The position numbers and the translations under genes are program-made. Shown in pieces: positions 1,310 through 61,091 of a stretch of 64,000 nt of DNA. Numbering within the stretch: the first letter of the stretch is position 1; each line of letters opens with the position of its first letter. Below the pieces are notes generated by a model that was given only the letters and a program-made list of their open reading frames with translations, was not told the DNA's origin and made no database searches. The stretch lies in IMG/VR virus record IMGVR_UViG_2974732849_000001; one strand, given 5' to 3'. The stretch is from a virus (lineage: Duplodnaviria > Heunggongvirae > Uroviricota > Caudoviricetes > Crassvirales).

Positions 1310-4300
1310 ATGATAAAGAAATCTACATGGCAGATAAAAGGTATGCAGAGGGACTTGTCTGTAAGCAAATTCTCTTCTGAGTATGCTTATGAGAACAAGA
1401 ATATAAGGATAATGTCTACCGATGATAATACCCTACTCAGCATAGTAAATGAGAAGGGTACTAAAGAGGTATCAAACATAGAAGGTATAGACTCTATAAA
1501 GGGATTGCCTATAGGACAAGCTACAATTAATGGTTATCTAGTACTGTTCACTACAGACCAAGACAATGGAAAAGATTACATATATAAGATATGGTTTGAC
1601 AAGGACAGCTTGCATGGAGTAATATTATATGATAGTAACAAAGGTAATCTTAACTTTAATCCTCTATATCCTATAGAGACATTGTCATTCTATGAAGATG
1701 ATAACATACAGAAAGTATATTGGACTGATGGATTAAACCAGCCCAGAGTTATCAATATTACTTCTATAGAAGATTACACACCCAATTCTTTTGACTTTGT
1801 TATGAGTTTGAATCCCGGTTCAACTGTTAACATAACCAATATAGAAAAAGGGTATAGTGGGATATTCCCGTCAGGGGTAATACAATATTGTGTTACAGTC
1901 TATACCAAGAATGCTCAGGAGTCCAATATACTGGCTATATCTCCTCTATATTACATAACAAAGTATGATAATGGAGGTAGTCCTGAGGATTCTTTATCTG
2001 TGAGTTTTAATGTGACAGTGTCTGTTAAAGATGTTGCATGTGAATATGTCAGATTATATTCAATACTGAGAACTACACAAGATTCAACTCCCATTGTCAA
2101 AAGAGTTCAAGATATAAAGTTATCTTCCTCTACTCAAACAATCAGTTTTACAGATACTGGTAATATTGGAGAGAGTATTGACCCTACTGAATTATTATAC
2201 TTGGGAGGAGAAGACATATCTTGTGGTACAATGTGCCAAAAGGACAATACATTATTCTTAGGAAATATCAATGTTAATAGAATTGAGCCTGATAGCTCTA
2301 TTAGAGAGTACTTCAGAGGATTAAATGTAAACCTCAATACAGTTACCACAATTAATTTGGGAACACCTTCTGGATATTATCAACATGAGTTTCAGTTGAA
2401 TAACAACTCTAGCACTATTAAGATATTTAAATATTTGGAGTGGTACAGATTTGGCATACAGTTTAAGCATAAGTCAGGCAAGTGGTCTTCTCCAGTATTC
2501 ATAAAAGACGCTCAGATTACCAAAACACCCGGTACTAATGACTTATATGGTAGTTTTGGTGTTTCAAATCTGGTATTCTATAAGTGCATACCTGAGGTAT
2601 CATTCAATGATGATACCATAATTGGTAAACTAAAGGATTTAGGATATATTGGATTCAGACCTATAATAGTATATCCCTCTATAGGGGATAGAGAAGTAAT
2701 ATGCCAAGGAGTTTTATGTCCCACTGTTTATAATGTTGGTGACAGATTCAGTAATTCCCCATTTGTACAGTCTTCTTGGTTCTCAAGACCCAACATTCCC
2801 TTTGATGTGATGAGGTCAGAGTCTGGGGATGCAGGCTTGCCAGATGTGTCACCTATATTTGACGTTCCTGAAAAGGCATTATATAGTGACCAAACCTTGT
2901 CAAGATATGGTATAATAAATAATGATAAGCAGTTTTATTCTCCTAATGAGTCGGTTAATATAAATATTTCCTTGATTGATACAGGTACTTGGGCTGAGTG
3001 TAGGCATAGTAGTCCTATACCAGGAAACACTCATAGGAATGCGGAGATACAGAATATATCCTACCCTCCTGCCACTCCACGCCTTGCAGGAGGAAACCAT
3101 TTGCTGACAGATTTTAGTGAATATGTGGAGAAGCATAAACATGAGTTTTTTGTAGACCAATCAATAGTTACTCTTCATTCCCCAGATATTGAATTTAACA
3201 GTGAAGTTGAGAATTATGATATTTCCAAGTGTAAGCTGAGGATAATAGGTGCAACTTTGGTAACCGCCAGTGTAGGGGATATTGACATTGTAACTTCTAC
3301 CACAGGAACTACCATGGTTGGCGCAGATAATGAGAAGTTCCCACCAACAGGGTTTTATAAGGAGTCTTGTGGTAGTGTCAACATATCCCCTTGGGCATTC
3401 AGAAGCCAATTGGCTAATATCAACTGGATAGATAATATTCAAAGAGACTTTGGTGGTGTTATGCCCTCACAATATAGAAGGATGCAGGTAGGCTTTGCCA
3501 CATATCCTTGGCATAGGAGTGGAGGTCTTGATGGTACAGGCTGGGCAGATGAGAATGGATATAGACCTGCCAAGTTACAGTATAAGAGGCTATCCAATTT
3601 GAAATTCTCTGCCACTAACCTGTACCTTAGCAGTACTAGTACATGGGATTCAGGGGAACTTGCAGATGCACAGATTTTTAATTCAAACGAGGTTACTCCA
3701 CTCAAATTGAAAGCTCAGGAGCATTCTGGAAAAGGCACTTTAGTGTACTATGGAAATGTAGATAAGATTACTTCAAATACTGAATATTCAGGTAGTGATT
3801 ATTACCAGATTGTAACATCTTCCACCTATAATCAGAATGATACCTCATATACTAACCACGACATATATGTTGGTGACTTTACACCTACCATACCTTTCAC
3901 TAATAACTCAATAAATAAGGCATATGACCCTGTACACATAAAGTACAAGTCTACCCCTCATGCTGTTATTGTACTTGAAGACAAGTACAACTTGGGTAAG
4001 TACTCATATAAGGTTTTGCCTACTATCATAGATGGTAATGATTATGGAGAGCCTACATCTAGTAGTTGGCCTGTAAACCGTGTTGCAATAACTCATGATG
4101 GTGCCCCTAACTTCTGGGATACTTTGGAAGTATACAACTCTGTGTCTCAGGATGTTATAGGAGACTTTGTAGGTACTGGTCCTAATAAGACAGTTAAAAG
4201 TATCCAATATGGCTGGTGGTGGTTAGCAGAATTATACAGAAGTGATGTCACTAATAGGTTTGGAGGAGAGTCTGATGATGCTATACAGAGTAATCAATGG

Positions 4301-5671
4301 TTACCATGTGGAGAAACTACCTATTTCTATGATGATGACTCCAGCCATACTTATCTTGTAAAGTACTTGGAAGGAGACACATACTTCCAAAGATATGACC
4401 ATTTAAAGACTTATCCATTTACTTTGGAAGATGAAAACTCGGTGACTGAGATAATGTCATTTATGTGTGAGACAAGGGTAAATCTAGATGGCAGGTATGA
4501 CAATAATAGAGGCAATACTTCTAATCTATATATAACCCCTGAGAACTTTAACAAGCTAAATCAAGTATACAATCAAAAGGATAACTTCTTTACCTATAAG
4601 GTAAGTACTGATGATACTTCGGTATTGAACAAATTTCCTAATGTGGTTACTTGGACTAAGACTAAAACTGCTGGAGAACTTATTGATACTTGGACCAATA
4701 TCACTCTTGCATCCACTCTTGATTTTGATGGTGATAAGGGTAGTATAACAGCTCTGAGAATGCATAATAATAATATCCTTGCTTTTCAAGATAAAGGCAT
4801 TAGTCAGATATTGTATAATGAGAATGTGCAGATTTCTCCCACTAATGGAGTGCCTATTGAAATTGCCAACAGTGGAAAAGTTACTGGTAAGAGGTACTTA
4901 TCTGATAGTATAGGATGTTCTAATAAGTGGTCTATATGCAGGACACCTAATGGTACCTATTTTATAGATGATATTACCAAAGGTATCTTCCTACTCAACA
5001 ACCAGTTGGATAACATCTCTGATAGGCTTGGATTCCATTCATGGATTAACAGTAGGTCAACTGGAATAAATGTATGGAATCCTAAAGACTTTAGTGGATT
5101 TGTAACATACTATGATAAGGTAAATGGAGATGTATTCTTCATAAGCAAGGATGAGTGCTTGGCATTTTCAGAACCATTAGGCCAGTTCTCTTCATTCTAC
5201 AGCTATGAGAATGTGCCATATTTCTCCAATATACTAGACAGGGGACTGTGGGTAAAGGATGGGAAGCTATGGCTGCACAATGAAGGTGATTATAATACCT
5301 TCTTTAACAGTTACCAGCCTTTCTATACTACTGTCATATCCAATCCTGATATGACCCAGGATAAGATATTCAATACTCTTGAGTTCAGGGCAGACAGTTG
5401 GAACAGTGAAGGTAAGCTATTGGATACAACCTATGATACTCTCAGTGTTTGGAATGAATACCAAAGTGGTGAATCCAAGCTTACCCATGTACTTGGAAGA
5501 CCTTCAAGTCTCAAGAAGAAGTTCAGGATATGGAGGGCTAATATACCAAGGGATAAATCAAACAATAAAGACAGGATGAGAAATCCTTGGTTATATCTTA
5601 AGCTATCTATGGAATCTGAAAATACAAATAAGACCATATTGCATGATATGGTGGTGCACTACTTTGAATAA
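1310..5671 (+). CDS. large virion structural protein (tail/fibre-like), function unknown
   Basis: 1453-aa uninterrupted ORF, rich in Asn/Thr/Ser/Tyr as is typical of tail or fibre proteins. A hairpin terminator follows it. Confidence 0.5.
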   Translation: MIKKSTWQIKGMQRDLSVSKFSSEYAYENKNIRIMSTDDNTLLSIVNEKGTKEVSNIEGIDSIKGLPIGQATINGYLVLFTTDQDNGKDYIYKIWFDKDSLHGVILYDSNKGNLNFNPLYPIETLSFYEDDNIQKVYWTDGLNQPRVINITSIEDYTPNSFDFVMSLNPGSTVNITNIEKGYSGIFPSGVIQYCVTVYTKNAQESNILAISPLYYITKYDNGGSPEDSLSVSFNVTVSVKDVACEYVRLYSILRTTQDSTPIVKRVQDIKLSSSTQTISFTDTGNIGESIDPTELLYLGGEDISCGTMCQKDNTLFLGNINVNRIEPDSSIREYFRGLNVNLNTVTTINLGTPSGYYQHEFQLNNNSSTIKIFKYLEWYRFGIQFKHKSGKWSSPVFIKDAQITKTPGTNDLYGSFGVSNLVFYKCIPEVSFNDDTIIGKLKDLGYIGFRPIIVYPSIGDREVICQGVLCPTVYNVGDRFSNSPFVQSSWFSRPNIPFDVMRSESGDAGLPDVSPIFDVPEKALYSDQTLSRYGIINNDKQFYSPNESVNINISLIDTGTWAECRHSSPIPGNTHRNAEIQNISYPPATPRLAGGNHLLTDFSEYVEKHKHEFFVDQSIVTLHSPDIEFNSEVENYDISKCKLRIIGATLVTASVGDIDIVTSTTGTTMVGADNEKFPPTGFYKESCGSVNISPWAFRSQLANINWIDNIQRDFGGVMPSQYRRMQVGFATYPWHRSGGLDGTGWADENGYRPAKLQYKRLSNLKFSATNLYLSSTSTWDSGELADAQIFNSNEVTPLKLKAQEHSGKGTLVYYGNVDKITSNTEYSGSDYYQIVTSSTYNQNDTSYTNHDIYVGDFTPTIPFTNNSINKAYDPVHIKYKSTPHAVIVLEDKYNLGKYSYKVLPTIIDGNDYGEPTSSSWPVNRVAITHDGAPNFWDTLEVYNSVSQDVIGDFVGTGPNKTVKSIQYGWWWLAELYRSDVTNRFGGESDDAIQSNQWLPCGETTYFYDDDSSHTYLVKYLEGDTYFQRYDHLKTYPFTLEDENSVTEIMSFMCETRVNLDGRYDNNRGNTSNLYITPENFNKLNQVYNQKDNFFTYKVSTDDTSVLNKFPNVVTWTKTKTAGELIDTWTNITLASTLDFDGDKGSITALRMHNNNILAFQDKGISQILYNENVQISPTNGVPIEIANSGKVTGKRYLSDSIGCSNKWSICRTPNGTYFIDDITKGIFLLNNQLDNISDRLGFHSWINSRSTGINVWNPKDFSGFVTYYDKVNGDVFFISKDECLAFSEPLGQFSSFYSYENVPYFSNILDRGLWVKDGKLWLHNEGDYNTFFNSYQPFYTTVISNPDMTQDKIFNTLEFRADSWNSEGKLLDTTYDTLSVWNEYQSGESKLTHVLGRPSSLKKKFRIWRANIPRDKSNNKDRMRNPWLYLKLSMESENTNKTILHDMVVHYFE

Positions 5672-18093: not shown

Positions 18094-18726
18094 TCATAAT
18101 TTATATCTCCATTTATAGCCATAGGATTTACCATTAGGGTATATCCTTAGCTGATTATTAATTGCTTTCTTTATCTTCTCCCAATCTTTATTTAAGGTCT
18201 GAGACAGTTCCTTGGCTGCTTGAGTAGTAGAATTATACTCTGCTATAAATTTCCCATCTAAGCTATATTGTAGAACAGGTTTATTAAGCCAGCTATTTGA
18301 TTGTCCTCTTTTATTAATAGACTGTCTCTCTTTAACAGTTCCATATCCAACATTGTATTTTCTTGTACACCATTCAAGATTAGACACAATATTATTGTTC
18401 TTAATTTCATCCTTATGATTAATCTCTTTATAATCATTAGGATTGGGAATGAAGTGTATTGCTACTAATCTGTGTACAGAATGCCATTTAGCAATATGAT
18501 TGCTACTTTTTAAGTTTACTAACTCATAGCCATCATCATTAATCATAGGCTTTAGGACCCTATCTTCTAGACTACATCCCTTCCCACTTCTTCCAAGAGA
18601 CTTAACCCTACCTAAGTTTGATACTTGGTACAAACCTTCATATCCTTGAATATCTTTCCAAATTTCTTCCATATTAAATGTTCTATTGTTCACTGCAAAG
18701 ATACAAATAAATCCACTAATATGCAA
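18094..18726 (-). CDS. HNH homing endonuclease (NUMOD4-type N-terminus)
   Basis: N-terminal WKDIQGYEGLYQVSNLGRVKSL is a NUMOD4 signature. HNH core HFIPNPNDYKEINHKDEIKNNNIVSNLEW. The gene is free-standing at the convergence point of two operons. Confidence 0.7.
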   Translation of the reverse strand: MHISGFICIFAVNNRTFNMEEIWKDIQGYEGLYQVSNLGRVKSLGRSGKGCSLEDRVLKPMINDDGYELVNLKSSNHIAKWHSVHRLVAIHFIPNPNDYKEINHKDEIKNNNIVSNLEWCTRKYNVGYGTVKERQSINKRGQSNSWLNKPVLQYSLDGKFIAEYNSTTQAAKELSQTLNKDWEKIKKAINNQLRIYPNGKSYGYKWRYKL

Positions 18727-43368: not shown

Positions 43369-44046
43369 TTAATATTCTTGGTACCAATCTATAGGTACTC
43401 CGTAAATCTCCTTAACCTTATTGCTGACATCAGCAAATAGCTGGTGTGGCATCTTAGTACCATTCCTTGCAAAATAGGCAGGATGCTCAACTTCAATAAT
43501 AAAGTTGGACTTACTATTGATATAAGGCTTGAATGTCTGAGCCTGTTTACCAAATAATACATATACCCCAGCAAGGTTATTCTCCGATATATTTCTCAGC
43601 AGTTTAGATATAAAAGGTCTCCACATCATAGTATGTGAACCGACTTTATTCATCTCTACTGTAAGTGCAGAGTTTATCATCAATATCCCTTGTCTTGCCC
43701 AACTCTCTAAGGTTTGGTCAAAGGTAATACAATAATGCGGAACTCCAAAATTGATTGCTGCTTCTTTAACAATGTTTAAGGATGGGGATAATTCGCTCTC
43801 CTCCACCTCTGCCCTATTGCCAAATAATATACCAGTTGCAACTCCTTTCTGCGGATATGGGTCTTGGCCTACAAATACCGCCTTCAGGCTATTGTAGGGA
43901 CAAAGCCTGAAAGCTTTGAATATGTCACATTGCTCGGGGCATATCTTCTTTGTAGCATATAATCCTCTCAGATTCTGCATTATTGATATTAGCTCATTCT
44001 CATCTATGACATTCATCCAATCACCAAGATACTCTCTTATTCCCAT
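43369..44046 (-). CDS. ung: uracil-DNA glycosylase (family 1)
   Basis: VFVGQDPYPQKG (GQDPY water-activating loop) and C-terminal HPAYF. Confidence 0.7.
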   Translation of the reverse strand: MGIREYLGDWMNVIDENELISIMQNLRGLYATKKICPEQCDIFKAFRLCPYNSLKAVFVGQDPYPQKGVATGILFGNRAEVEESELSPSLNIVKEAAINFGVPHYCITFDQTLESWARQGILMINSALTVEMNKVGSHTMMWRPFISKLLRNISENNLAGVYVLFGKQAQTFKPYINSKSNFIIEVEHPAYFARNGTKMPHQLFADVSNKVKEIYGVPIDWYQEY

Positions 44047-44681
44047 TGCCTCATTACAACATCTACATTATCAGCCAAGAAGTCATTCACATCATCATTA
44101 AAGGTGTCTACACTGCTGGGCACAGTGGGCTTGACAATGTTATCAATAGGGCCGATTATAATCTCTGGCTTCTGTATCTTTCCATGTAAAGTGATAATGC
44201 CGTAATTATACATGACATTAAGTACAGTGAATACAATGCCTTTACTTAGAGGTGATGATGATTCAAAAACCTTTGGACTCACATAGCATTTAGTCTTCTC
44301 CTTCTCTGAAAGGTCAATAGTACATAGGAATAAAGGATTCAAATCCTCATCCAAGATTAGTCCTGTACTAGCCCAATATACTGTGCCTGAGAGAATGAAC
44401 TTCCTTATACCATATTGTCCTGATGAGTTTCTCAGAAGTGAATAAAAAGTTTGTACCTTCATAGGAACTCCTTGCTCATACAAAGGTACTATCACATCTC
44501 CATTCTTATCTCTTATAAGACCATTAATATTGCCTACTAGTGGAAAACCTTCATCTTTCCGTACTAATATTCCTACCTTAACACCATTGTCCGTTAATGG
44601 AATAGATTCTGAAGAATAAGGAGGTGTTGTCCTGTGTATCGCAAAGATTGTCCGTACCAGTTGCTTAGCGTTTTCTGTCAT
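44037..44681 (-). CDS. hypothetical protein downstream of the E1-like gene
   Basis: 214 aa. ATGA-type overlap with the E1-like gene. No HPN/Cys E2 signature found. Confidence 0.35.
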   Translation of the reverse strand: MTENAKQLVRTIFAIHRTTPPYSSESIPLTDNGVKVGILVRKDEGFPLVGNINGLIRDKNGDVIVPLYEQGVPMKVQTFYSLLRNSSGQYGIRKFILSGTVYWASTGLILDEDLNPLFLCTIDLSEKEKTKCYVSPKVFESSSPLSKGIVFTVLNVMYNYGIITLHGKIQKPEIIIGPIDNIVKPTVPSSVDTFNDDVNDFLADNVDVVMRQWE

Positions 44682-45448
44682 GACTCAGTCTTTAAATACA
44701 TAATTTCTGCATTATAAGTTGTAAAGAAGGGTAAATCCCTTTCTATGGGAGGGTTACACTGGTTAGCACAAAAGTTCACGAATAGATTTACCATATATGA
44801 TGCAATCATATTTGCACAGAATGTGGTCTGCTTGTAAGAACATATTGTCTCATCAGCCTCCTCATCAGAGAATAGGAATTGTGATTCATACCTATTGATA
44901 TTATACTCATCATCTCCTCTAATGCACAATACTTGAAACTCCTCAGCAGCCAATCTACCATCAATGAACAGGCAGTTTGCCTTTTCCTCACTAGGTTTGC
45001 TCTGAACATGATTCTTCCATGCCTGAAAGAAATTCTTTCTGGCTACCATATTGTCAAATCCGCAAATCATTATGTCTGATGCTTTGGTATTTGCGGTAAA
45101 CCTTTCATTAATACCACATATACCATAATAATTAGCATAATTGGATACCATTTCAGCAAGTGCACCTACCTTTGTCTTTCCTACATCCTCTAATCCATAC
45201 AATTGGCCACTCATATTAGCCTCATCCACAGTATCATCATCATAGATGAATATGGCCTTGGGCTTTACTCGTGCCAACAGAAATCCTACATAGCTTCCAA
45301 TCCCACCAATGCCTGCAAGTGTAATGGATTTCTCCCGTATTTTATTATACCAGATAGCTGAACTGAACCTGCTAGTGGTATCATCCATAAGTAATGTGGG
45401 GGAATTTATCGGCAGCAGGTTATCTGTTGATTCTTGTTCTGTACTCAT
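44678..45448 (-). CDS. E1-like adenylyltransferase (ThiF/MoeB/HesA family)
   Basis: LAGIGGIGSYVGFLLARV (Rossmann GxGxxG), then DDDTVDEANMSGQ and ICGFDNMVARKNF, which match the ThiF/MoeB nucleotide-binding and C-x-D-N regions. Confidence 0.6.
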   Translation of the reverse strand: MSTEQESTDNLLPINSPTLLMDDTTSRFSSAIWYNKIREKSITLAGIGGIGSYVGFLLARVKPKAIFIYDDDTVDEANMSGQLYGLEDVGKTKVGALAEMVSNYANYYGICGINERFTANTKASDIMICGFDNMVARKNFFQAWKNHVQSKPSEEKANCLFIDGRLAAEEFQVLCIRGDDEYNINRYESQFLFSDEEADETICSYKQTTFCANMIASYMVNLFVNFCANQCNPPIERDLPFFTTYNAEIMYLKTES

Positions 45449-45465
45449 AACTTTTCTTTTCTTTC

Positions 45466-46566
45466 TTAAACTATATAATCTTTCAGGAATTTGATATACC
45501 TTTCGATATAAATGTTACTAGGTAACTTTTCTAGCTCATGTATGACATGGCTGGCATAGACTGAGGCCATTTCAGTAATATCAAGACCTTTTCCTTCCAA
45601 ATCATCATCCTCTATGCTCCACATCAAATACTCAAGGTATGCCTTAGCCCATTCATCAAATCTCCTGAGGGCTTCTTTACCTGCACCAAACCTTTCAGTA
45701 TACAGTGTAGTCATTGCTCCAGACCATCTGCTTGGGTCTATTTTACTCTTGGTAGTCATCAAGATACTCCCAGTAACTATTTGCAGTACCATTTCCTTGA
45801 TAGCATCTTTATCAACACTTAAGGTATTGACAGATGGGTCTTCCTGATAGTCAGTTTTCTTATCCTTCTGTATTTTTTGACCATAATACTGTCCAAATAC
45901 TTTTGTCTTATTGGGTAAATCAACAACAGCCTTATTCCTCAATTCAATTAATCTGCTCTCAATTTCTGAAGACTTATATCTGTTTTCAACCACTACCCTT
46001 AGCCTGAAATACTCTATTACTTCGGTATCATCAACATATTCGTCAATTTCTGTCTTATCAGGTTCCCCAAAGAACCCAATGGTTTTCTTCTCAACTACTC
46101 TTGTAGACTTTACTTTCCTAGTAACAGCGGCGGAATAATCACCCTTGTTATTGACAATAAGAGATACGAAGTTATTACTGTCTGTACCTTCCTGTTTTAA
46201 GGTCTTGACATCCTCACCACTAAAGAAGGTAGCCATGAGATTGTGTGAATGAATCAAGCCCATTTGACAACCTAGAAGTTCCTTCTCACACATATAGGCC
46301 ACTATATCAGGACTATTACTAAACTCTGTGGTGGCAGCAGAGCCTATATCCATGATATACATATCCTTACACAATATCCTAAGGTCACCTCCTTCAAAGG
46401 TTCCCTCATAGGTGTAGAATAATATCCCTGACCATTCCCTACTCCATACCTCCCTACATGCAAACCTTATCTTGTTCTCCAATTCTTCAGGTATCACAAG
46501 AGTATAGTCACAGTTCTTGTGGCTCTTCGCTTCCACTATTTTCACATTATTGTTTGTTCTTTCCAT
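45466..46566 (-). CDS. JAB/MPN (JAMM) metalloisopeptidase-domain protein with about 200-aa C-terminal extension
   Basis: IHSHNLMATFFSGEDV is an exact H-x-H-x7-S-x2-D JAMM motif. A Glu-rich segment lies upstream (IPEELE). Confidence 0.6.
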   Translation of the reverse strand: MERTNNNVKIVEAKSHKNCDYTLVIPEELENKIRFACREVWSREWSGILFYTYEGTFEGGDLRILCKDMYIMDIGSAATTEFSNSPDIVAYMCEKELLGCQMGLIHSHNLMATFFSGEDVKTLKQEGTDSNNFVSLIVNNKGDYSAAVTRKVKSTRVVEKKTIGFFGEPDKTEIDEYVDDTEVIEYFRLRVVVENRYKSSEIESRLIELRNKAVVDLPNKTKVFGQYYGQKIQKDKKTDYQEDPSVNTLSVDKDAIKEMVLQIVTGSILMTTKSKIDPSRWSGAMTTLYTERFGAGKEALRRFDEWAKAYLEYLMWSIEDDDLEGKGLDITEMASVYASHVIHELEKLPSNIYIERYIKFLKDYIV

Positions 46567-47662
46567 ATTTGAGATTTATTACTTCAAGTATAACACTTAA
46601 TATTTCTGAGATAACATCCTCTGACAAGAATAGACTTCGGACACTTGTCTCACTGACAGCTCCGGAGATTCTAAGTTTGATTTCCCTACCTTTGAAAGTG
46701 CATATTCGTCTACCTACATGCTCAGATACCCTATCAAGTAACGGCAATGACATATTCATACCATATATATGTCCTTTAGCTGCCACTCCAGATTTCATGT
46801 AGTATCTCTTAATATCTTTCACCTGCTCAGCTTCTGCGTTATCAAGTTGATTGTACCAGTTAATAAATTCATTACTTACAAGTATCATACATTCAGCATT
46901 TGACATACCCAAAACATATGACCCATTCCTGTAGACAAACTTCAACTTCCTGCTGAGAATCAAATGTCTTACGAAATTTGTTATGAACTTTGGTAGGTTC
47001 TGTGCTCTCCTATATCCGATGTAATCTATTCTTCTCGAGGAGCTAGTGATTCTTTCTAGTTTCCTATAAGGTCCTCCTGACAATGACTCTACAGTAACAA
47101 ACTTGCTTAATTCATAACAGAATAGCATCCACTCCTCATTAGTGCATACCTTACTCCTCAGCATATACGATGTGCCTTGTATAGGTCCTGCGCCCAAACA
47201 AGGAGTTTCAAACCTTTCAAAGTCACCAATAGGTATTCCACATATATGACTGTGCATATAGTCAGAGTAGAATTGGTCCAATGTGTACTCTGCCCTGTTC
47301 ATTCCAATGGTACTAAGAACCCCGGGTACTGCAAGTCTAACCTTCACATACAGTTCTGTAATGTATACAAAATTTCCATGCTCATTAGTTACCTTTACTC
47401 TAGGAAAGTACACTAATATAAATGGGCGTAGTAATGCATCCCAACACCATGTAATCTCTGTTACACCTTCCTTTATAGACTCTTCAGATAGCTGTCTTGT
47501 AAATGCGTCTATTGGTGGCTCCACTATTCTCAAATCAACCCTCTCCTCACCAAAGAATTCCTTGAATACATCATATATCCTCAGGATATTCTCCATAAAA
47601 TACCCCTTTTCCTTGTGCTCTCTTATTATTTCGGGTACACTCTCCCTAGAAACTGCTTCCAT
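46547..47662 (-). CDS. hypothetical protein, first gene of the E1/JAB transcription unit
   Basis: 371 aa. Has YMHSHICGIP and an internal SLSGGPYR. Confidence 0.35.
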   Translation of the reverse strand: MEAVSRESVPEIIREHKEKGYFMENILRIYDVFKEFFGEERVDLRIVEPPIDAFTRQLSEESIKEGVTEITWCWDALLRPFILVYFPRVKVTNEHGNFVYITELYVKVRLAVPGVLSTIGMNRAEYTLDQFYSDYMHSHICGIPIGDFERFETPCLGAGPIQGTSYMLRSKVCTNEEWMLFCYELSKFVTVESLSGGPYRKLERITSSSRRIDYIGYRRAQNLPKFITNFVRHLILSRKLKFVYRNGSYVLGMSNAECMILVSNEFINWYNQLDNAEAEQVKDIKRYYMKSGVAAKGHIYGMNMSLPLLDRVSEHVGRRICTFKGREIKLRISGAVSETSVRSLFLSEDVISEILSVILEVINLKYGKNKQ

Positions 47663-47687
47663 ATTTGAGAACTCTAAATGTATACAA

Positions 47688-47726
47688 AATAAAAAAAAAT
47701 AGGGAAGGAATATAATATTCCTCCCC
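47688..47726 (-). terminator. rho-independent terminator between the 218-aa gene and the E1/JAB unit
   Basis: Minus strand: GGGGAGGAATAT/ATATTCCTTCCC hairpin followed by TATTTTTTTTTATTTTG. Confidence 0.6.
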
Positions 47727-47736
47727 CTATCTACTC

Positions 47737-48393
47737 TTAGCCTATCAAGCCCTCAAACATTTCATCTATCTCGCCCTTGGTAAACTCAACGGCTTTCTCC
47801 TTTTTGGCCTTAGCTTTAACACCTAAATCCTCAAGTATCATCCCCCTAGCCTTAAAGCTGAGATTTCCTGCATCATACAATGCCTCCACCAGCTTTACAA
47901 GGGCTTGTTTTACACCTTTCTCATCTGTATAGCTGACAACCTCCTTACCCTTTTTGACGGGACTTTCCTTAGCAGGACTTTCTTTCTTATCCCTCTTCTC
48001 CTCTATCAAGGATACAAGGTCACTGGTCTTGCACTGAGTAAAGTTCTTGCCAAATCTCTTCTGACACTCATCCTGAAGACCCATTGTCTTGATGCAGGTA
48101 TAAGCCTCCATTCTACTCATGGAAGCCCCAGACTTAATGTTCTTATTTGTGGTGGTTAACATAATTACCAAATTATTGGTAACCTGCCCCTTCCAAGTAA
48201 TATCATGAGGAAGGATAGAGTCATCAGACTTTAACTCTGTCTTTGACAGCCCCTCAAGGAAGCTCATATTCCTATATGAAATCCCTTCTCTTGTCAAATC
48301 ACTCTTTAATTCTCTCAATGTAGTTGCATCTGAGAGTATTTCCACTGTTCTGTTTCCTGTAGTACATACTACTGTAATCTTTCTTTTTTCCAT
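47737..48393 (-). CDS. hypothetical protein with possible N-terminal beta-grasp (ubiquitin-like) segment
   Basis: 218 aa. The first 90 aa or so show an alternating hydrophobic pattern compatible with a beta-grasp fold, which is weak evidence. Lys-rich C-terminal half. Confidence 0.3.
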   Translation of the reverse strand: MEKRKITVVCTTGNRTVEILSDATTLRELKSDLTREGISYRNMSFLEGLSKTELKSDDSILPHDITWKGQVTNNLVIMLTTTNKNIKSGASMSRMEAYTCIKTMGLQDECQKRFGKNFTQCKTSDLVSLIEEKRDKKESPAKESPVKKGKEVVSYTDEKGVKQALVKLVEALYDAGNLSFKARGMILEDLGVKAKAKKEKAVEFTKGEIDEMFEGLIG

Positions 48394-48422: not shown

Positions 48423-49505
48423 CTATTCAATCTCAAAGGGCAAATCATCTCTATACTCTTCCCCTCTAGAAGAGGTAAATAAAGGAATGATTATTTTAAG
48501 GAACTCTTCCTTTCCCTTGGCCTTGAATAAATCTGAAATATCTTTTCCTTCATCAAAGAATGGTAATACCACATTAGTGAATCCTGTCTCTCTTGAAAGC
48601 CTCTCAGCATCTTCTAGGCCGGGCTTATCATTATCCAGACAAATAAATACCTTCTTGAACCTCCTGTTCAATTCACTTATTGCAGTACCACTCATTCTGT
48701 ATCCCTCACCTTGAATGGCAAGGGAAGGTATCCCTGTGTTAGACCATAGACATAGGGCATCCTTTAATGAGGAACAAATACATATTTGTTCCCCATATTC
48801 AGGTACCTTAGTCCATAGGCTTACCACAGAGCTGTCATGCTTGTTACTCCACTTATACCTGCCCTTATTAAAGGGTTGGTATATCTTTAGCGTAACTTTT
48901 CCTTCCTTATGTTCAACATAGGCATAGGCATATTTATCAGCTACAAACACATATCTATGACCATCTTTGAGGACAATTTTATGGGATATGGGGTAAACCT
49001 CTGCATATTTGAGCCATTCAACACTAATGCCATAAGACTCCCAATATTCTATATCATGTTTCCTCCATTCCCTAATCTTGCATTGTAGGTCTGAGTTGCT
49101 GTTATGACTGTTCATATCATTTACAACACATGGTGTATATGTTTGAATATTGCAATTACCCAAAGAAAACCTTTCCATATCCTTCCTGATTCTTGATAAG
49201 ACCTCACTATAACTACAGCTCCACATATGACCAAGGAGGTCAAAGATTCCTCCCCTGTCTCCTGTAGACAAATCTGTATAATATATCCTTTCCCCATTGG
49301 GGGAATAGAGACCAAAGGAAGGTCTTCTATCCCTTCTTAATGGGGAATTTATAATAGTGGGTACTTCTGTAACACCCAAATAATATGATAAAATATCTGC
49401 TTCTGTTACTCTATCCAAGATTTCCTTCAAACTCACAGAATCCTTGCCCTTGCTGAATGCCATGCTTTTTTTTTTAACAGTTACACTTACTTGCTCAAAT
49501 CCCAA
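48423..49505 (-). CDS. DnaG-like DNA primase (Toprim); true start probably the ATG at about 49463
   Basis: KVFICLDNDKPGLEDAERL is a Toprim DxD motif. An A10 tract directly precedes the MAFSKGKD start. Confidence 0.55.
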   Translation of the reverse strand: MGFEQVSVTVKKKSMAFSKGKDSVSLKEILDRVTEADILSYYLGVTEVPTIINSPLRRDRRPSFGLYSPNGERIYYTDLSTGDRGGIFDLLGHMWSCSYSEVLSRIRKDMERFSLGNCNIQTYTPCVVNDMNSHNSNSDLQCKIREWRKHDIEYWESYGISVEWLKYAEVYPISHKIVLKDGHRYVFVADKYAYAYVEHKEGKVTLKIYQPFNKGRYKWSNKHDSSVVSLWTKVPEYGEQICICSSLKDALCLWSNTGIPSLAIQGEGYRMSGTAISELNRRFKKVFICLDNDKPGLEDAERLSRETGFTNVVLPFFDEGKDISDLFKAKGKEEFLKIIIPLFTSSRGEEYRDDLPFEIE

Positions 49506-50989: not shown

Positions 50990-51274
50990 CTAAAATATCT
51001 GTAATAATTGTCCTAATCCTCCAGACTTCTGTAATATATCAGGCTTATCCCACAGCTTGTATATTGTGAATTTCCTTTCATAATAGTCTAGGGCTGTTAT
51101 AAAACATGCTGCCAATTGTGCACTACTTAATAACTTGGTAACAAACAGGGTAGTCTCATAGTGAGGCTTGCCCTGTTCTATACAGTATTGCATCAATACC
51201 ATACTGATGTCACCTGTAGTAATACTATTATTAGCAACTAACCTTGATATTCTTACAGTCTCATCCCTATCCAT
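50990..51274 (-). CDS. hypothetical protein
   Basis: 94-aa ORF. A T11 run follows it on the minus strand. Confidence 0.35.
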   Translation of the reverse strand: MDRDETVRISRLVANNSITTGDISMVLMQYCIEQGKPHYETTLFVTKLLSSAQLAACFITALDYYERKFTIYKLWDKPDILQKSGGLGQLLQIF

Positions 51275-56339: not shown

Positions 56340-57140
56340 CTATTTTCTTATTTTACTTAAATCCAAAAATGTAGAAGTATTCCCACCAGTGATTACTGTT
56401 GGTACAGTCCCATCCCATTTCTCAATCCACATCTTCTCAAGGATTTCAGGGGTAAGTGCTTGCTGTCTCAACTCATTGGCCTTCTTCTCTGCCTCTGCTG
56501 CCACAATAAGCTTCTTGGCTTGTGCCTCTGCTACCTTCACCTCATTCTCTACCTGCATAGCCTGTTGGATAGCTTTATTCTTGGCATTTACTGACTCTAC
56601 AATAGTCTGAGGGTATTTGAGACCTGAAGTGAGTTGTTCTAATTGAAAGTTCTCTTTGGCAAGTGCTTGAGCCAAGTACCTTTCAATAGCATTTTCAATA
56701 CTGTCCCTTTTACTTACAATATCATCTGTGGTAAACTTGTTTAATTGGATTCTAAAAGCGTCCTTTACATAATTATATAGTGTACCACTAATGACTTCAC
56801 TTAATTCCTTCCTGTATTTCTTGAAGACAGCAGGTGATTTACCATCAATAATCTTCAATGAAACAGTGGGGTCTACAGTGAACTCGGAACCATCCTTTGC
56901 ATTGATTGTAAAAGGTTCATAATCAATGGTCTGTACATAAGTAGGATACTCATATACTGTAGTGGTCCAAGGATTATACCACACAATGCCAGTTACCAAA
57001 GAAGCATCATCTACCCCCTTGTCATTACCATATAAGTTCACCTTAATGCCCTCACAGCCTGCATCTACCTTCTCCATGCACGATGTTACTGAGAGCATTA
57101 CAAATAGGGACAATATCCCTAGAATCAATTTACTTTTCAT
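56340..57140 (-). CDS. SPFH/band-7 (HflK/C-like) lipoprotein
   Basis: Signal peptide with lipobox LSVTSC. The C-terminal coiled region QAMQVENEVKVAEAQAKKLIVAAEAEKKANELRQQ is typical of SPFH proteins. Confidence 0.5.
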   Translation of the reverse strand: MKSKLILGILSLFVMLSVTSCMEKVDAGCEGIKVNLYGNDKGVDDASLVTGIVWYNPWTTTVYEYPTYVQTIDYEPFTINAKDGSEFTVDPTVSLKIIDGKSPAVFKKYRKELSEVISGTLYNYVKDAFRIQLNKFTTDDIVSKRDSIENAIERYLAQALAKENFQLEQLTSGLKYPQTIVESVNAKNKAIQQAMQVENEVKVAEAQAKKLIVAAEAEKKANELRQQALTPEILEKMWIEKWDGTVPTVITGGNTSTFLDLSKIRK

Positions 57141-57327
57141 CTCTTTTAAATTTAATTGTTGTTAAACATTTTGTTTTAATTGATAAATAGAATATTACTA
57201 CTATCAAAAGAAATCCTAATACATTCTCAACAGAATTTGGTGTTGACATCATTCCAAGCCCTAATGTGAGCAGGGCAACGAAGATTATAAACCATACAGC
57301 AATCTTTGCTACTATTTCAGCTTTCAT
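57130..57327 (-). CDS. small 2-TM membrane protein
   Basis: 65 aa with two hydrophobic helices. Overlaps the SPFH gene. Confidence 0.4.
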   Translation of the reverse strand: MKAEIVAKIAVWFIIFVALLTLGLGMMSTPNSVENVLGFLLIVVIFYLSIKTKCLTTIKFKRDEK

Positions 57328-58127
57328 ACTACTTCAATTACTTTTACATTGTCAGGTAAAGCTTCCCGTCCCCAATCCCTATATGAATTAGTGAAATAAA
57401 CCTCCTTGTAATTCTCGCTAAGTGTGGCAATACCTTTAGGATTAACCATGTGGGTTACATAGATGGCTCTATCCCTATTAGGACAATGAGATTCAAGTAA
57501 TTGTGCAATACCTTTAAAGGTACCACCTCCATCACACAAGTCATCAATGACCACAAGTGGAAGGTCTTGATTTTCCTCTATAACTTCTGGGTTTTCAATC
57601 TTGAAACCAGAGAGTTGTCCTGTCTTTGGGTCCCTAACTTTACTACATATCACATTCTTAGTGGAGTCTCCACCATACCTTTGCAATGCGCCTCTATCAG
57701 GATATACTTTCAAGTATCCTCTAAAGTCTGGTATAGGAGTGGCAATATCTCCCCAATACGCATTAATAAGGTCTTGTACCCTGTATGAGTGGGGTTCAAG
57801 TACATGAACTGCTTGAGGAGACATATTATTTATTACCTGTGCAACTATGCTGAGAGAAAATGACTCATCATAACTTATTACCCTATCCATTCTCATGCTC
57901 ATAAGATAGGTAATATTCAAACTAAACAAGACACCTTGCCTATTAAGAATATCACCTACCTGCATAAGAATAAACAAGTCAGTAGGATTGCATATCCTAC
58001 ATATCACAGATAAATAATCTTTCCTGTCAATATCCTTTAAGACAATATGAGGTTCACCATCAGGGAACTGTATAACCTTATACTTTATACTACTCTTTTC
58101 AGGTCTAATAAGATTCAATACTTGCAT
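57324..58127 (-). CDS. ribose-phosphate pyrophosphokinase (Prs) family protein; candidate ADP-ribose pyrophosphate synthetase (Adps-like)
   Basis: Matches Prs blocks: FPDGEPHIV, NITYLMSMRMDR (Prs Y..RQDR), VHVLEPHS, and VVIDDLCDGGGTF (PRPP-binding loop). Confidence 0.6.
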   Translation of the reverse strand: MQVLNLIRPEKSSIKYKVIQFPDGEPHIVLKDIDRKDYLSVICRICNPTDLFILMQVGDILNRQGVLFSLNITYLMSMRMDRVISYDESFSLSIVAQVINNMSPQAVHVLEPHSYRVQDLINAYWGDIATPIPDFRGYLKVYPDRGALQRYGGDSTKNVICSKVRDPKTGQLSGFKIENPEVIEENQDLPLVVIDDLCDGGGTFKGIAQLLESHCPNRDRAIYVTHMVNPKGIATLSENYKEVYFTNSYRDWGREALPDNVKVIEVV

Positions 58128-58128
58128 A

Positions 58129-59649
58129 CTAATCCTCCAATACTATAGAGTTATTAACATTGGCTCTAATCTGGCTTAGAGACCACTCTTTAACCAACTT
58201 GCCATCTTCAAAGACAGTCTGTAGGCAGCTTTTATCCTCTTGTTCCTTAGTTACTTGGTCTTCAGCTATATACTTATTACCATCACTCTGGACACAGATA
58301 AGACCTTTCAATGACTTCTTTGTGCCATCATCAGTCTTTGGGTCTTTGAAGATTTCTCTCCCTTCTCCATTAACTTGGCACCAAGTAGCCTTCATAGCAA
58401 AGCCAAGAGAATCCCTGCTCTTATACTGATAGGTATATGAACCTACACCGAGTACAAGGTTAGTAGCTGCAAAGCCTCTCTCCTCAAGTCTCTTGTAAAT
58501 TTCCTTCTGCCTCTCAAGAGTAATGGAATCACCATAGATGATACCTACTTTAGGATTGAGTACCTTATAGCCCTTCTCATTGATAGTCCCACCAAAGATT
58601 TCCCACAAGACTTCATAAGCACCTACCCATTCAACAGGGCTGATTATCTTAAAAGCTTCTACTTGTTCCCGCCAATTCTCAAAGTCCTCCTGTTTATATC
58701 CTGCAATGATATGTACAGGGTTTCCACTATCAGGTCTTATGACTAGTCTACCATCTCTTGCAAGGATTTCATCCTTCAATTTAGGCAGATACTCTGTCAT
58801 TACCTTCCAAAAGTCCCAAGTATCAGAAACAATAGATACAAATCCAGTAGGATATACCTCTGTAATCAGTCTTCTGAATGTTTCCAACTCATCCTCTTTA
58901 CCTCCTGCACACATTACTGAATGCTCAGTAGCTGGTATTGTAGCTGCAATAAGCTCCTCTCCAGCATTTGCATTATAATACTCTTCAAGACCAGCAATGG
59001 CAGGTATAGTCTCACTACCACAGAATGAGGTCATGTGTCCCATACCAGACATAATGGCAGCTTCTACTCCAGCCATACCTCTCATAGAGGAGTCATGCAC
59101 AAGGAAGTTAAGGTCTACATCCTTGAATCCTGTCTTTCTTGCATGCCTTATCAACTCTTTCTTATACAATCTTGCAGTAGTTGCACTTGTCATAGGCAAC
59201 CATAAGGTAGTTGAGATAAGAGTCTCAAAGTAATTGGTAAGCCAGAAGAAGTCAGGATGTGTGTTGATAAATGTCAATGCAGGCACTCTAATAGGACATA
59301 GTGTGCCTTCAGGCAATGCTTTGATTCTGATAGGAAGATAGCCAAGGTCATGCAACTCCTCAATATGCTTAGTACCTACATTGTTAGGTCCTAAGAATGT
59401 ATCCACCCTTCTCTTGAACTCTGCAACTGCTATATCCTTAGGCTTATTGAAGAAGTCCTGTTGGAACTGCTTCATCAAGTACTCCTTGATAAAGTACTAA
59501 ATACCAAATACAACAGCACCTTCTGTAGCTTCAGGATAATAATGACAGCTTCTTGGAGTCCAGTTAGAATAGACATATTCCGTGTTTTCAGGATATTGCC
59601 TTCTATGGTCTAACTTGTAGCCATCAGTCAATAAAATTGCTTCTTTCAT
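58129..59649 (-). CDS. nicotinamide phosphoribosyltransferase-family protein (Nampt/Namat-like), 506 codons with one in-frame TAG at 59497-59499; ends with TAG
   Basis: N-terminus ILLTDGYKLDHRRQYPENTEYVYS, then LPIRIKALPEGT, FFWLTNYFETL, VSIVSDTWDF, LVIRPDSGNP, IIYGDSIT and FKDPKTD. All are collinear with eukaryotic and bacterial Nampt. Without read-through the gene splits into a 50-aa fragment and a 449-aa fragment. Confidence 0.6.
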
Positions 59650-60889: not shown

Positions 60890-61019
60890 GCCAAATAAAC
60901 AAAACCTTTATTGAATCTAAGAAAGGTATAAGACTTTTTTTTTCCTTCCATCCATCCTATATTAGCCCTATATTAATCCTATCCTTCATGGGTGCCTTGT
61001 ATTATTATAATTCCCTGCG

Positions 61020-61091
61020 TGCTCCTAACAAGACTCGAACTTGTATCCCAGACTTAGGAGGTCTATGTTCTATCCTTTGAACTATAGAAGC
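61020..61091 (-). tRNA. tRNA-Arg (anticodon CCU)
   Basis: Minus strand GCTTCTATAGTTCAAAGGATAGAACATAGACCTCCTAAGTCTGGGATACAAGTTCGAGTCTTGTTAGGAGCA. 7-bp acceptor stem with one G-U pair, D-loop GG, anticodon loop CU-CCU-AA, T-arm ACAAG-TTCGAGT-CTTGT. 72 nt; CCA not encoded. Confidence 0.55.

Follow-up and report, generated by a model that had tools for sequence, protein, structure and literature searches.

Why should a crAss-like gut phage keep, inside its DNA-replication operon, a set of genes that resemble the parts of a ubiquitin-type conjugation system? The question is raised by a window of 64,000 nucleotides (IMG/VR record IMGVR_UViG_2974732849_000001, Crassvirales), for which an initial annotation had described a block of five genes, with a UDG gene (43369-44046) on one flank and a primase gene (48423-49505) on the other. 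All five ORFs were found on the minus strand at the positions claimed. They encode, from the primase side, proteins of 218, 371, 366, 256 and 214 aa, and in the UDG-to-primase block neighboring ORFs are joined by overlaps of 4 to 20 nt or by a 17-nt gap. The terminator that had been proposed to separate the 218-aa gene from the rest is there as well, as an intrinsic-terminator-like hairpin with a 12-bp stem followed by T9 (feature 47691-47727, with the hairpin placed at 47727-47701; minus strand), lying directly after the stop codon of the 218-aa gene and ahead of the enzyme genes. We think that the locus is probably a phage-encoded ubiquitin-like conjugation cassette, expressed with the replication genes and consisting of four conserved genes (for a pro-Ubl, an E2-like protein, a JAMM peptidase and an E1) and a fast-evolving fifth.

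The 256-aa protein (44678-45448, minus strand) had been described as a minimal E1-like adenylyltransferase with GxGxxG and C-x-D-N motifs, and this holds up: it scores 60.3 bits against Pfam ThiF (cut-off 28.1) and contains GIGGIG, DDDTVDEANMSGQ and CGFDNM. Searched against the PDB, the family profile matched E1-type proteins at E values of 1e-20 to 1e-23 (Uba1 1.5e-23, ThiF 4.6e-23, MoeB 4.8e-22, UBA5 1.6e-20), and Cap2 was matched at 3.5e-14. Such matches place the protein in the E1-like (ThiF/MoeB/UBA) adenylation superfamily as a single domain of the ThiF/MoeB/UBA5 type, and the expected GxGxxG, ribose-binding Asp, catalytic Lys and D-N-x-x-x-R Mg site are all conserved. G46, G48, D70, D72, N78, K93 and D132 are invariant in alignments A7 and A10; N133, R137 and C203 are invariant in A7 and kept in at least 90% of the wide alignment A10, in which G46/G48/G51, D70, K93, D132-N133 and R137 are all invariant or at least 90% conserved. 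Cys203 (44840-44842, minus strand) lies in the crossover loop, where a thioester or acyl-disulfide would require a Cys, aligns with the Cys of L087, a canonical MoeB-like sequence, and is missing in A10 solely from the outlier L102.

GenBank product names suggest a thiamine-biosynthesis ThiF, and ThiF is the top NCBIfam match; a lambda-like tail-assembly K/I pair is a further candidate. Either reading is scarcely credible. A thiamine ThiF was rejected on scores far from the NCBIfam equivalog cut-offs (61.7 vs 159 and 55.1 vs 152) and on the absence of ThiS, ThiG and ThiH neighbors. The K/I pair, which the initial annotation had also considered as a conserved tail set, was rejected since an NlpC/P60 domain is lacking and the locus belongs to the replication arm rather than to the tail module.

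The 366-aa protein (45466-46566, minus strand) has a predicted MPN domain at approximately residues 20-165 and a helical C-terminal half. Its H-x-H-x7-S-x2-D motif, spotted earlier, is confirmed as E44...H106-x-H108-x7-S116-x2-D119, with E44, H106, H108, S116 and D119 invariant in the family. The protein alone falls below the Pfam cut-off (17.7 vs 25); the family profile matches CSN5 (E 2.8e-4), archaeal JAMM1 (0.024) and an Rpn11-like protein (0.52) in the PDB, as would befit the JAMM/MPN+ metallopeptidase that we predict it to be.

What would these two enzymes act on? A hidden Ubl had been suspected either in the N-terminus of the 218-aa protein or at an SLSGG in the 371-aa protein. The SLSGG is present (residues 193-197) in the 371-aa protein, which is now read as E2-like; the former suggestion has gained substance. 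Residues 1-83 of the 218-aa protein (47737-48393, minus strand) are a ubiquitin-like beta-grasp with matches to ubiquitin, FAT10, MoaD and BilA, and residues 84-89 (K-N-I-K-S-G) form a flexible tail of low pLDDT that is nevertheless fully conserved, K84, I86, S88 and G89 each occurring in 121/121 sequences. Gly89 (codon 48127-48129, minus strand) is the sole invariant residue of the pro-Ubl in the wide alignment A8, and is the predicted mature C-terminus as well as the predicted site of JAB cleavage and E1 activation. As modeled, the N-terminus thus has the fold of a ubiquitin-like modifier, with a flexible tail and a conserved, predicted terminal Gly. In three loci (L030, L061 and L063), a NUMOD4/HNH/NUMOD1 homing endonuclease is inserted 2 residues past the Gly and splits the pro-Ubl gene; no intron was detected at these split genes, and the enzyme genes there are intact. 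Given this natural split, the Ubl is separable at that Gly.

The remainder of the pro-Ubl, residues 90-218, is helical and has an acidic E-I-D-x-M-F end, resembling the acidic tails that phage replication proteins carry. Could this part be the functional product, perhaps a replisome accessory factor, with the beta-grasp serving as a cleavable pro-domain or chaperone that is never conjugated, in the manner of ubiquitin-ribosomal fusions or of lambda tail-assembly protein I? In the genome, the Ubl gene adjoins primase in most lineages, and a Ubl fused to a second domain, with a JAB partner, is the lambda TAPI/TAPK pattern (PMC1779556). However, the C-terminal part is variable, and distant lineages keep just the beta-grasp and the Gly. 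Such a role would also leave unexplained the strictly co-conserved E1, with its ATP-site residues and Cys intact, and the E2-like protein, and we consider it very unlikely. The likeness to the lambda/T1 proteins I (Ubl) and K (JAB plus NlpC/P60) extends to a phage-encoded beta-grasp that has a terminal Gly, is joined to a C-terminal domain and is predicted to be freed by a partner JAB peptidase (PMC1779556), whereas the I/K set has no E1 or E2, includes NlpC/P60 and belongs to the tail module; the present cassette has an E1 and an E2-like protein, lacks NlpC/P60 and sits in the replication module.

The initial annotation had seen no obvious E2, an assessment that we would tentatively revise. 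The 371-aa protein (46547-47662, minus strand) consists of an alpha-beta4-loop-alpha-alpha N-terminal half and a C-terminal domain at approximately residues 225-366, and gives E2-type fold matches that include bacterial BubB and Cap2. Its family forms ~2,780 clusters (50% identity) across public metagenomes but has no Pfam model, and no sequence similarity to the Prok-E2 Pfam families was detected. When the family was sampled down to its 50%-identity representatives, C155, H139 and G157 each occurred in 266/266 members and S138 in 265/266; Y135 is likewise invariant. The S138-H139...C155-x-G157 residues would sit in a loop (133-159) that links the beta-meander to the helix after it. Judged from this pattern, the protein is a candidate E2-like enzyme, in which Cys155 (codon 47198-47200, minus strand; motif P-C-L-G) is the candidate catalytic Cys and S138-H139 a putative HPN-like part.

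The presence of this fourth protein bears on a sulfur-carrier role, which we regard as unlikely. The E1 would then adenylate the Ubl for conversion to a C-terminal thiocarboxylate, from which sulfur would pass to phage tRNAs, a nucleotide or a DNA base, and JAB would merely uncover or recycle the Gly, in parallel with ThiS/ThiF, MoaD/MoeB, CysO/Mec+, TtuB/TtuC and Urm1/Uba4. ThiF-type models are the best curated matches of the E1, and its conserved crossover Cys corresponds to the Cys through which ThiF forms an acyl-disulfide. The phage also has 22 tRNA genes, including those for Gln(UUG), Glu(UUC) and Lys(UUU), tRNAs that are normally 2-thiolated. An E1, a JAB and a Ubl with Gly, without a recognizable E2, is the classic layout (PMC1779556). 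On the other hand, the cassette and its neighbors include no rhodanese, cysteine desulfurase, PP-loop ATPase or ThiG/MoaE-type acceptor, the NCBIfam ThiF and MoeB models stay far under cut-off (61.7 vs 159), the Ubl is produced as a fusion with ~130 extra residues, and the always-linked 371-aa protein matches E2-type folds, not a sulfurtransferase. ThiF/ThiS, MoeB/MoaD and CysO/Mec+ share with the cassette the type and size of the E1 domain, a Gly-ended Ubl and, in some versions, a JAB. Unlike the cassette, they lack an E2-like partner and are encoded close to enzymes that donate and accept sulfur. Their E1s also have the N-L-x-R-Q Arg and usually CxxC zinc pairs; the zinc pairs are absent from the E1 here, and in the family alignments N-x-(S/G/A)-G-Q takes the place of the Arg motif.

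Could the cassette instead be directed against host immunity? Similarly built host systems attack phages (10.1101/2023.09.04.556158, PMC10557695, PMC10097602), and the phage proteins might block Bil, type II CBASS Cap2/Cap3 or Bub, in that the JAB would strip Ubl or cGAS conjugates made by the host and the E1, E2 and Ubl would act as decoys or competitors. The E1 is weakly similar to the Rossmann part of Cap2 (the match at 3.5e-14 above), and the fast-evolving fifth gene would suit an arms race. That gene (44037-44681, minus strand; 214 aa) is translationally coupled to the E1 gene through a 4-nt overlap, and in searches of Pfam, PHROGs, NCBIfam, PADLOC and the PDB its product had no match that reached threshold; homologues occur in close Asinivirinae-like phages only, and a non-homologous gene fills the slot elsewhere. 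However, the JAB, the E2-like protein and the Ubl match no PADLOC model, and the replication-module setting recurs in very different phages, presumably in different hosts. Given the strict conservation of the four-gene set, in which the catalytic residues are intact and the cassette's own Ubl keeps an invariant Gly, we favor an autonomous conjugation pathway over a lone DUB or decoy, and counter-defence seems quite unlikely. The suggestion of a phage Ubl-type module, made in the initial annotation, is in part borne out by the conserved E1, JAMM, Ubl with Gly and E2-like gene; the counter-defence and sulfur-carrier options offered beside it are minor rivals.

How does such a pathway compare with known ones? 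BilABCD (types I and II), the ISG15-like anti-phage system of bacteria, has the same four separate genes in the order Ubl, E2, JAB/JAMM, E1 (10.1101/2023.09.04.556158), without an E3 gene, and in both Ubls the JAB takes off, or is here predicted to take off, what lies beyond a conserved Gly. There, however, the E1 has an IAD-AAD-CYS architecture (PMC11601596), as opposed to a single domain of 256 aa whose crossover loop carries the Cys, 0-9 residues follow the Gly of BilA as opposed to ~130, and the genes lie in bacterial defence islands, not in lytic phage replication operons. No sequence similarity of the cassette proteins to Bil proteins was detected, including Ubl to BilA and E2-like protein to BilB. 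In type I Bub (6E.1 / DUF6527), Ubl is fused to E2 and JAB to E1, whereas the genes are separate here; both Bub enzymes lack a catalytic Cys and use oxyesters, whereas C203 of the E1 and C155 of the E2-like protein are conserved; and this locus has no match to the DUF6527 serine protease. Type II CBASS Cap2/Cap3 shares the E1, E2 and JAB chemistry predicted here, and the PADLOC "E1-E2" models match the Rossmann part (E 4.5e-11), but in Cap2 the E2 and E1 are fused, the protein conjugated is a CD-NTase, not a beta-grasp Ubl, and the locus has no CD-NTase or effector. PRTRC (the ParB-related, ThiF-related cassette) of plasmids and ICEs is likewise a mobile-element cassette with a ThiF-family E1 near DNA maintenance genes, but the match to TIGR03736 is weak (38.6, cut-off 144.75), the other PRTRC models were not matched, and there is no ParB here.

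The same arrangement is found in PhiCrAss001, a cultivable model in which the counterparts are gp79-gp76, and in DAC15, Dulem virus 41, Flavobacterium phage FpV4 and many metagenomic contigs; it is non-random. Co-occurrence of the five-gene block elsewhere was borne out for the four genes but, beyond close Asinivirinae-like phages, not for the fifth. The order Ubl<E2<JAB<E1 is found in 162/179 loci that have an E1, and 14 of the remaining 17 are interrupted by contig ends. Rather tentatively, at somewhat short of an even call, we propose that the PhiCrAss001 group of Crassvirales, the Flavobacterium FpV phages and other large phages have a complete Ubl cascade of their own that covalently tags phage or host proteins in the replication phase.

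In such a cascade, the 218-aa protein would be produced in excess, because the terminator after its gene cuts read-through into the enzyme genes. The JAMM peptidase would cleave after Gly89 and thereby part a beta-grasp Ubl of 89 residues from the helical C-terminal fragment. There are precedents in BilC, which cuts BilA after a conserved Gly (PMC10557695), and in BubCD, where a JAB domain next to a minimal homodimeric E1 severs a Ubl-E2 fusion after Gly229 (PMC11601596). The phage E1, which like ThiF, MoeB and UBA5 is probably a homodimer, would adenylate Gly89 and transfer it to Cys203, from which the Ubl would pass to Cys155 of the E2-like protein or, less likely, to Ser138 as a Bub-like oxyester. 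Choice of the target, a phage or host protein plausibly tied to replication or host takeover, would fall to the C-terminal domain of the E2-like enzyme, perhaps helped by the fifth-gene product, and the Ubl would be joined to a lysine. The JAMM enzyme may also undo the conjugation.

Ubiquitin-like conjugation in bacteria has hitherto been tied to anti-phage defence, through Bil, Bub and type II CBASS, and no earlier report of such a ubiquitin-style kit in a phage was found in the literature. If the proposal is correct, lytic phages, including PhiCrAss001, use this chemistry themselves, and the cassette would, for the first time, give a bacterial virus a conjugating ubiquitin-type system of its own, a mirror image of those immune systems, with a new E2 family and a Ubl produced as a fusion precursor. 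It may also expose a new phage route to the control of replication or to host takeover. Four "hypothetical" or misnamed genes of a highly abundant human gut phage group would gain testable functions, with Gly89, Cys155, Ser138, Cys203 and the JAMM motif as targets for mutation.

The terminator, too, recurs: a hairpin and T-run are found at the equivalent position in crAss001, DAC15, FpV4, L088, L093, L096, L098, L100, L101, L081 and L011, so that across distant lineages the position is conserved, without sequence similarity.

The window covers 64 kb at the right-hand end of the uncultured phage cr85_1 (MT774390.1; Kahnovirus oralis, Steigviridae, Crassvirales), and the cassette at 44037–48393 corresponds to 78201–82557 of that record. 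Five minus-strand open reading frames (ORFs) lie between the UDG gene (43369–44046) and the primase gene (48423–49505), exactly where the initial annotation had placed them, and are packed closely (overlaps of 4, 10 and 20 nt; a single 17-nt gap). They encode proteins of 218 aa (Ubl; 47737–48393), 371 aa (E2-like; 46547–47662), 366 aa (JAB; 45466–46566), 256 aa (E1; 44678–45448) and 214 aa (44037–44681). The terminator claimed beside the 218-aa gene is present as a 12-bp hairpin followed by T9 on the minus strand (47727–47701), 3' of the gene. In eleven divergent loci a hairpin and T-run stand right behind the Ubl gene, with no sequence similarity among them; this recurrence suggests that the Ubl is made in excess over the enzymes. 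GenBank names the 256-aa product "thiamine biosynthesis protein, ThiF [phiCrAss001]" and remarks of the 366-aa protein that it "contains metalloprotease domain [phiCrAss001]". The E1/JAB pair had thus already been seen in 2018, merely as two labels, of which "thiamine biosynthesis protein" is apparently wrong. A literature search (crAss or Crassvirales with ThiF, JAB or ubiquitin; phage-encoded E1/E2/JAB systems) that lay mostly outside the subscription journals returned no prior description, which is weak evidence of absence.

The order Ubl, E2-like, JAB, E1 is kept in PhiCrAss001 (gp79–gp76), DAC15, Dulem virus 41 and Flavobacterium phage FpV4, and also in distant contigs from metagenomic bins labeled Puia, Nitrososphaerota, Tissierellales and Flavobacteriales. 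In FpV4 the UDG gene is on the opposite side, indicating that the four genes travel as a set, independently of UDG. All four were found in order in 162 of the 179 fetched loci with E1, which overlap between scans and so do not count as independent events; 14 of the others were cut by contig ends and three were unrelated outliers. The neighbors are always replication genes (DnaB, RecT-like, primase, UDG, PD-(D/E)XK exonuclease or PolA). Of the five-gene block proposed initially, four genes are kept in this way; the fifth, encoding the 214-aa protein, has homologues in close relatives only, and elsewhere the gene that overlaps the E1 stop is not homologous to it.

A 373-kb Puia sp. MAG contig, DASYBV010000020.1 (retrieved locus L096; also L106), carries the cassette. 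Over the E1 protein match (233 aa) this region agrees with a 95-kb IMG/VR viral contig at 100% identity, and the Puia contig thus represents either a chimeric bin or a crAss-like phage, integrated or co-assembled. The E1s of two other retrieved loci, L100 and L098, used as queries, gave no match among viral contigs. A Moraxella Mcat match was excluded from the system because the gene is canonical MoeB-like, with CxxC motifs. The Xanthomonas jumbo phage PhiXhv-16 was likewise left uncounted, since no HMM, Pfam or PDB similarity to cassette proteins or E2s was found. Its ThiF-like gene immediately follows a gene for an 892-aa protein with Cys-rich ends, both of them between the DNA ligase and topoisomerase genes (L086, 3241–6615); the 892-aa protein contains an I-H-P-H-M...G-S-L-C-L-G stretch reminiscent of the E2 active-site signature.

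Where is the Ubl? The initial annotation had found no obvious GG-terminated Ubl, but hinted at a beta-grasp-like N-terminus in the 218-aa protein, and there one is present, according to a structural model and alignments. The AlphaFold2 model (38-sequence alignment, mean pLDDT 84) has a beta-beta-alpha-beta...beta domain at residues 4–81 (pLDDT >90), followed by a segment at 84–89 with pLDDT <50 and then helices. Gly89, at the end of the beta-grasp, is the sole invariant residue in an alignment reaching 17–28% identity, and K84, I86, S88 and G89 are each present in 121 of 121 closer homologues. This predicted flexible but fully conserved tail looks like the C-terminus expected of an enzyme-recognized Ubl. 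The portion after the glycine is variable: helical with an acidic E-I-D-x-M-F end in crAss-like phages, short and acidic elsewhere. As for the other proposed site, SLSGG in the 371-aa protein, we rejected it as the end of a Ubl. We consider it likely that the N-terminus of the 218-aa protein is the substrate of E1 and JAB.

Nature has also split the Ubl gene, in the retrieved loci L030 (the same as L165), L061 and L063. A 91-aa ORF there terminates in K-K-I-R-S-G-I-C or S-G-K-F, and behind it is a homing endonuclease of the NUMOD4/HNH_3/NUMOD1 type, of which L030 has an intact copy and L063 a degraded one. The third piece is a separate ORF whose start, M-N-T-N-N-M-T-R-A-E-A-Y, corresponds to the opening residues of the C-terminal domain. 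When the DNA is aligned with that of an uninterrupted relative, the insertion falls precisely after the Gly codon and before the C-domain. Rfam detected no group I or II intron in the endonuclease region, and the genes for the E2-like protein, JAB and E1 remain intact at these loci; the Ubl halves can therefore exist as separate polypeptides, with the break at the predicted processing site. The two-residue overhang past the glycine resembles type II BilA, which is trimmed by BilC (PMC10557695). Free-standing homing endonucleases of this type were found at 2430–2984 and 3293–3805 of L030 and 3694–3837 of L063 (the degraded copy); they crowd the primase–Ubl region of related phages, one copy lying between primase and Ubl and another inside the Ubl gene.

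The initial annotation had likewise seen no obvious E2, but the 371-aa protein is a probable candidate. Its model (46 sequences, pLDDT 87, pTM 0.79) consists of helices, strands at 42–47, 79–92, 98–111 and 115–127, a long loop at 133–159, helices at 160–170 and 175–188, and a second domain. Y135, S138, H139, C155 and G157, all in the loop, are invariant across the widest alignment, and H139, C155 and G157 are found in 266 of 266 sequences of a set with 50%-identity representatives included. A histidine ahead of a cysteine in a loop after a beta-meander would be the E2 layout, judging by the order of modeled secondary structure. With 2,780 clusters at E ≤1e-3 among 1.84 billion representatives, this is a large family, and one for which there is no Pfam model. 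Neither the 371-aa nor the 218- and 214-aa proteins had an informative match in Pfam, NCBIfam, PHROGs or PADLOC (PHROGs gave unknown-function families only), and a Pfam scan of every member of their wide alignments found nothing. Searching PDB sequences with the 371- and 214-aa profiles likewise yielded no usable match; one to YbbR from the 371-aa profile (E 0.03) was judged spurious. Foldseek matched the 371-aa model to nothing in the PDB at E <0.7, and hhalign of the E2-like profile against an approximate human UBE2D2 sequence returned a probability of 0.1.

The E1-like and JAMM assignments were both borne out. Pfam ThiF recognizes the 256-aa protein (60.3 bits against a cut-off of 28.1), which fails all NCBIfam equivalog cut-offs (ThiF, 61.7 against 159; PRTRC_ThiF, 38.6 against 144.75). 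The profile of cassette-linked homologues matches the Uba1 active adenylation domain (1.5e-23), E. coli ThiF (4.6e-23), MoeB (4.8e-22), UBA5 (1.6e-20) and Cap2 (3.5e-14). In the widest alignment G46, G48, D70, D72, N78, Q82, K93, D132-N133, R137 and C203 are invariant or at least 90% conserved, C203 lining up with the cysteine in the crossover loop of a canonical MoeB-like sequence. The protein departs from the canonical form in lacking the CxxC zinc pairs and, throughout the cassette-linked family, in having N-x-x-G-Q (residues 78–82; 45203–45217) for N-L-x-R-Q. An additional near-invariant D-G-R motif (R165) may compensate for the latter. Many homologues (alignment A7), among them PhiCrAss001 gp76 (L002, 5590–6000), are extended at the N-terminus by a variable stretch of up to about 130 residues that has no Pfam match and is absent from cr85_1. 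In JAB, E44, H106-x-H108, S116 and D119 are invariant; its profile matches CSN5 (2.8e-4), archaeal JAMM1 (0.024) and an Rpn11-like protein, and the last 200 residues carry no assignment.

Read most economically, the cassette encodes a Ubl conjugation cascade, and we lean somewhat towards the full mechanism. JAB would cut after Gly89; E1 would adenylate this glycine and load it onto its own Cys203; the Ubl would pass to Cys155 of the E2-like protein and finally to a target lysine; JAB may also reverse conjugation. The main rival is a sulfur-carrier role, with which E1, JAB and the Ubl glycine are compatible and which the phage's main array of 22 tRNA genes (record 1731–4802) would fit, but a sulfur donor or acceptor enzyme is lacking and the E2-like protein would be left unexplained. 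Conjugation has precedents: JAB pre-processing after a conserved glycine is proven for BilC (PMC10557695), and type I Bub is a proven case of a JAB that cleaves a Ubl fusion next to a minimal, homodimeric E1 (PMC11601596). The BilA-B-C-D gene order is identical to that of the cassette (10.1101/2023.09.04.556158). The cassette belongs to none of the known systems. BilD, the Bil E1, has an IAD-AAD-CYS architecture; Bub has fusions and DUF6527 and lacks the catalytic Cys; Cap2 is a fusion protein acting on CD-NTase; the PRTRC models do not fit; and the tail-assembly pair lambda K/I has no E1 and sits in the tail module. The initial interpretation as a Ubl-type system is thus supported in part, and extended by the presence of a Ubl and a probable E2.

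Elsewhere in the window, a minus-strand nicotinamide phosphoribosyltransferase (NAMPT) gene (58129–59649) contains one in-frame TAG. The two ORFs on either side share a frame, one of 50 aa (NAMPT_N, E 5.5e-7) and one of 449 aa (NAPRTase family, E 1.9e-37), and the sequence across the TAG is VVFGI*YFIKEYL. NAMPT has Gln at this position. The TAG is either a CAG-to-TAG nonsense change or locally read through or recoded; no CTA suppressor tRNA is found among the phage's 23 tRNA genes. The adjoining phosphoribosyltransferase-like gene (GenBank "ribose-phosphate pyrophosphokinase"; weak Pfam Pribosyltran; the two span 57324–59649) makes up with it a NAD-salvage pair that could counter NAD-depleting host defenses. 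Two further GenBank names look wrong: a "serine protease" (56340–57140) is an SPFH/Band 7 protein (Pfam E 1.7e-22), and an "ABC-type cobalt transporter" is a 94-aa ORF (50990–51274). A lone minus-strand tRNA-Arg(CCT) gene (61019–61091) lies far from the main tRNA array. An HNH endonuclease gene (18094–18672) is situated between the giant RNA-polymerase subunit genes, and at about 18 kb the GC skew changes sign, coinciding with the switch in transcription direction.
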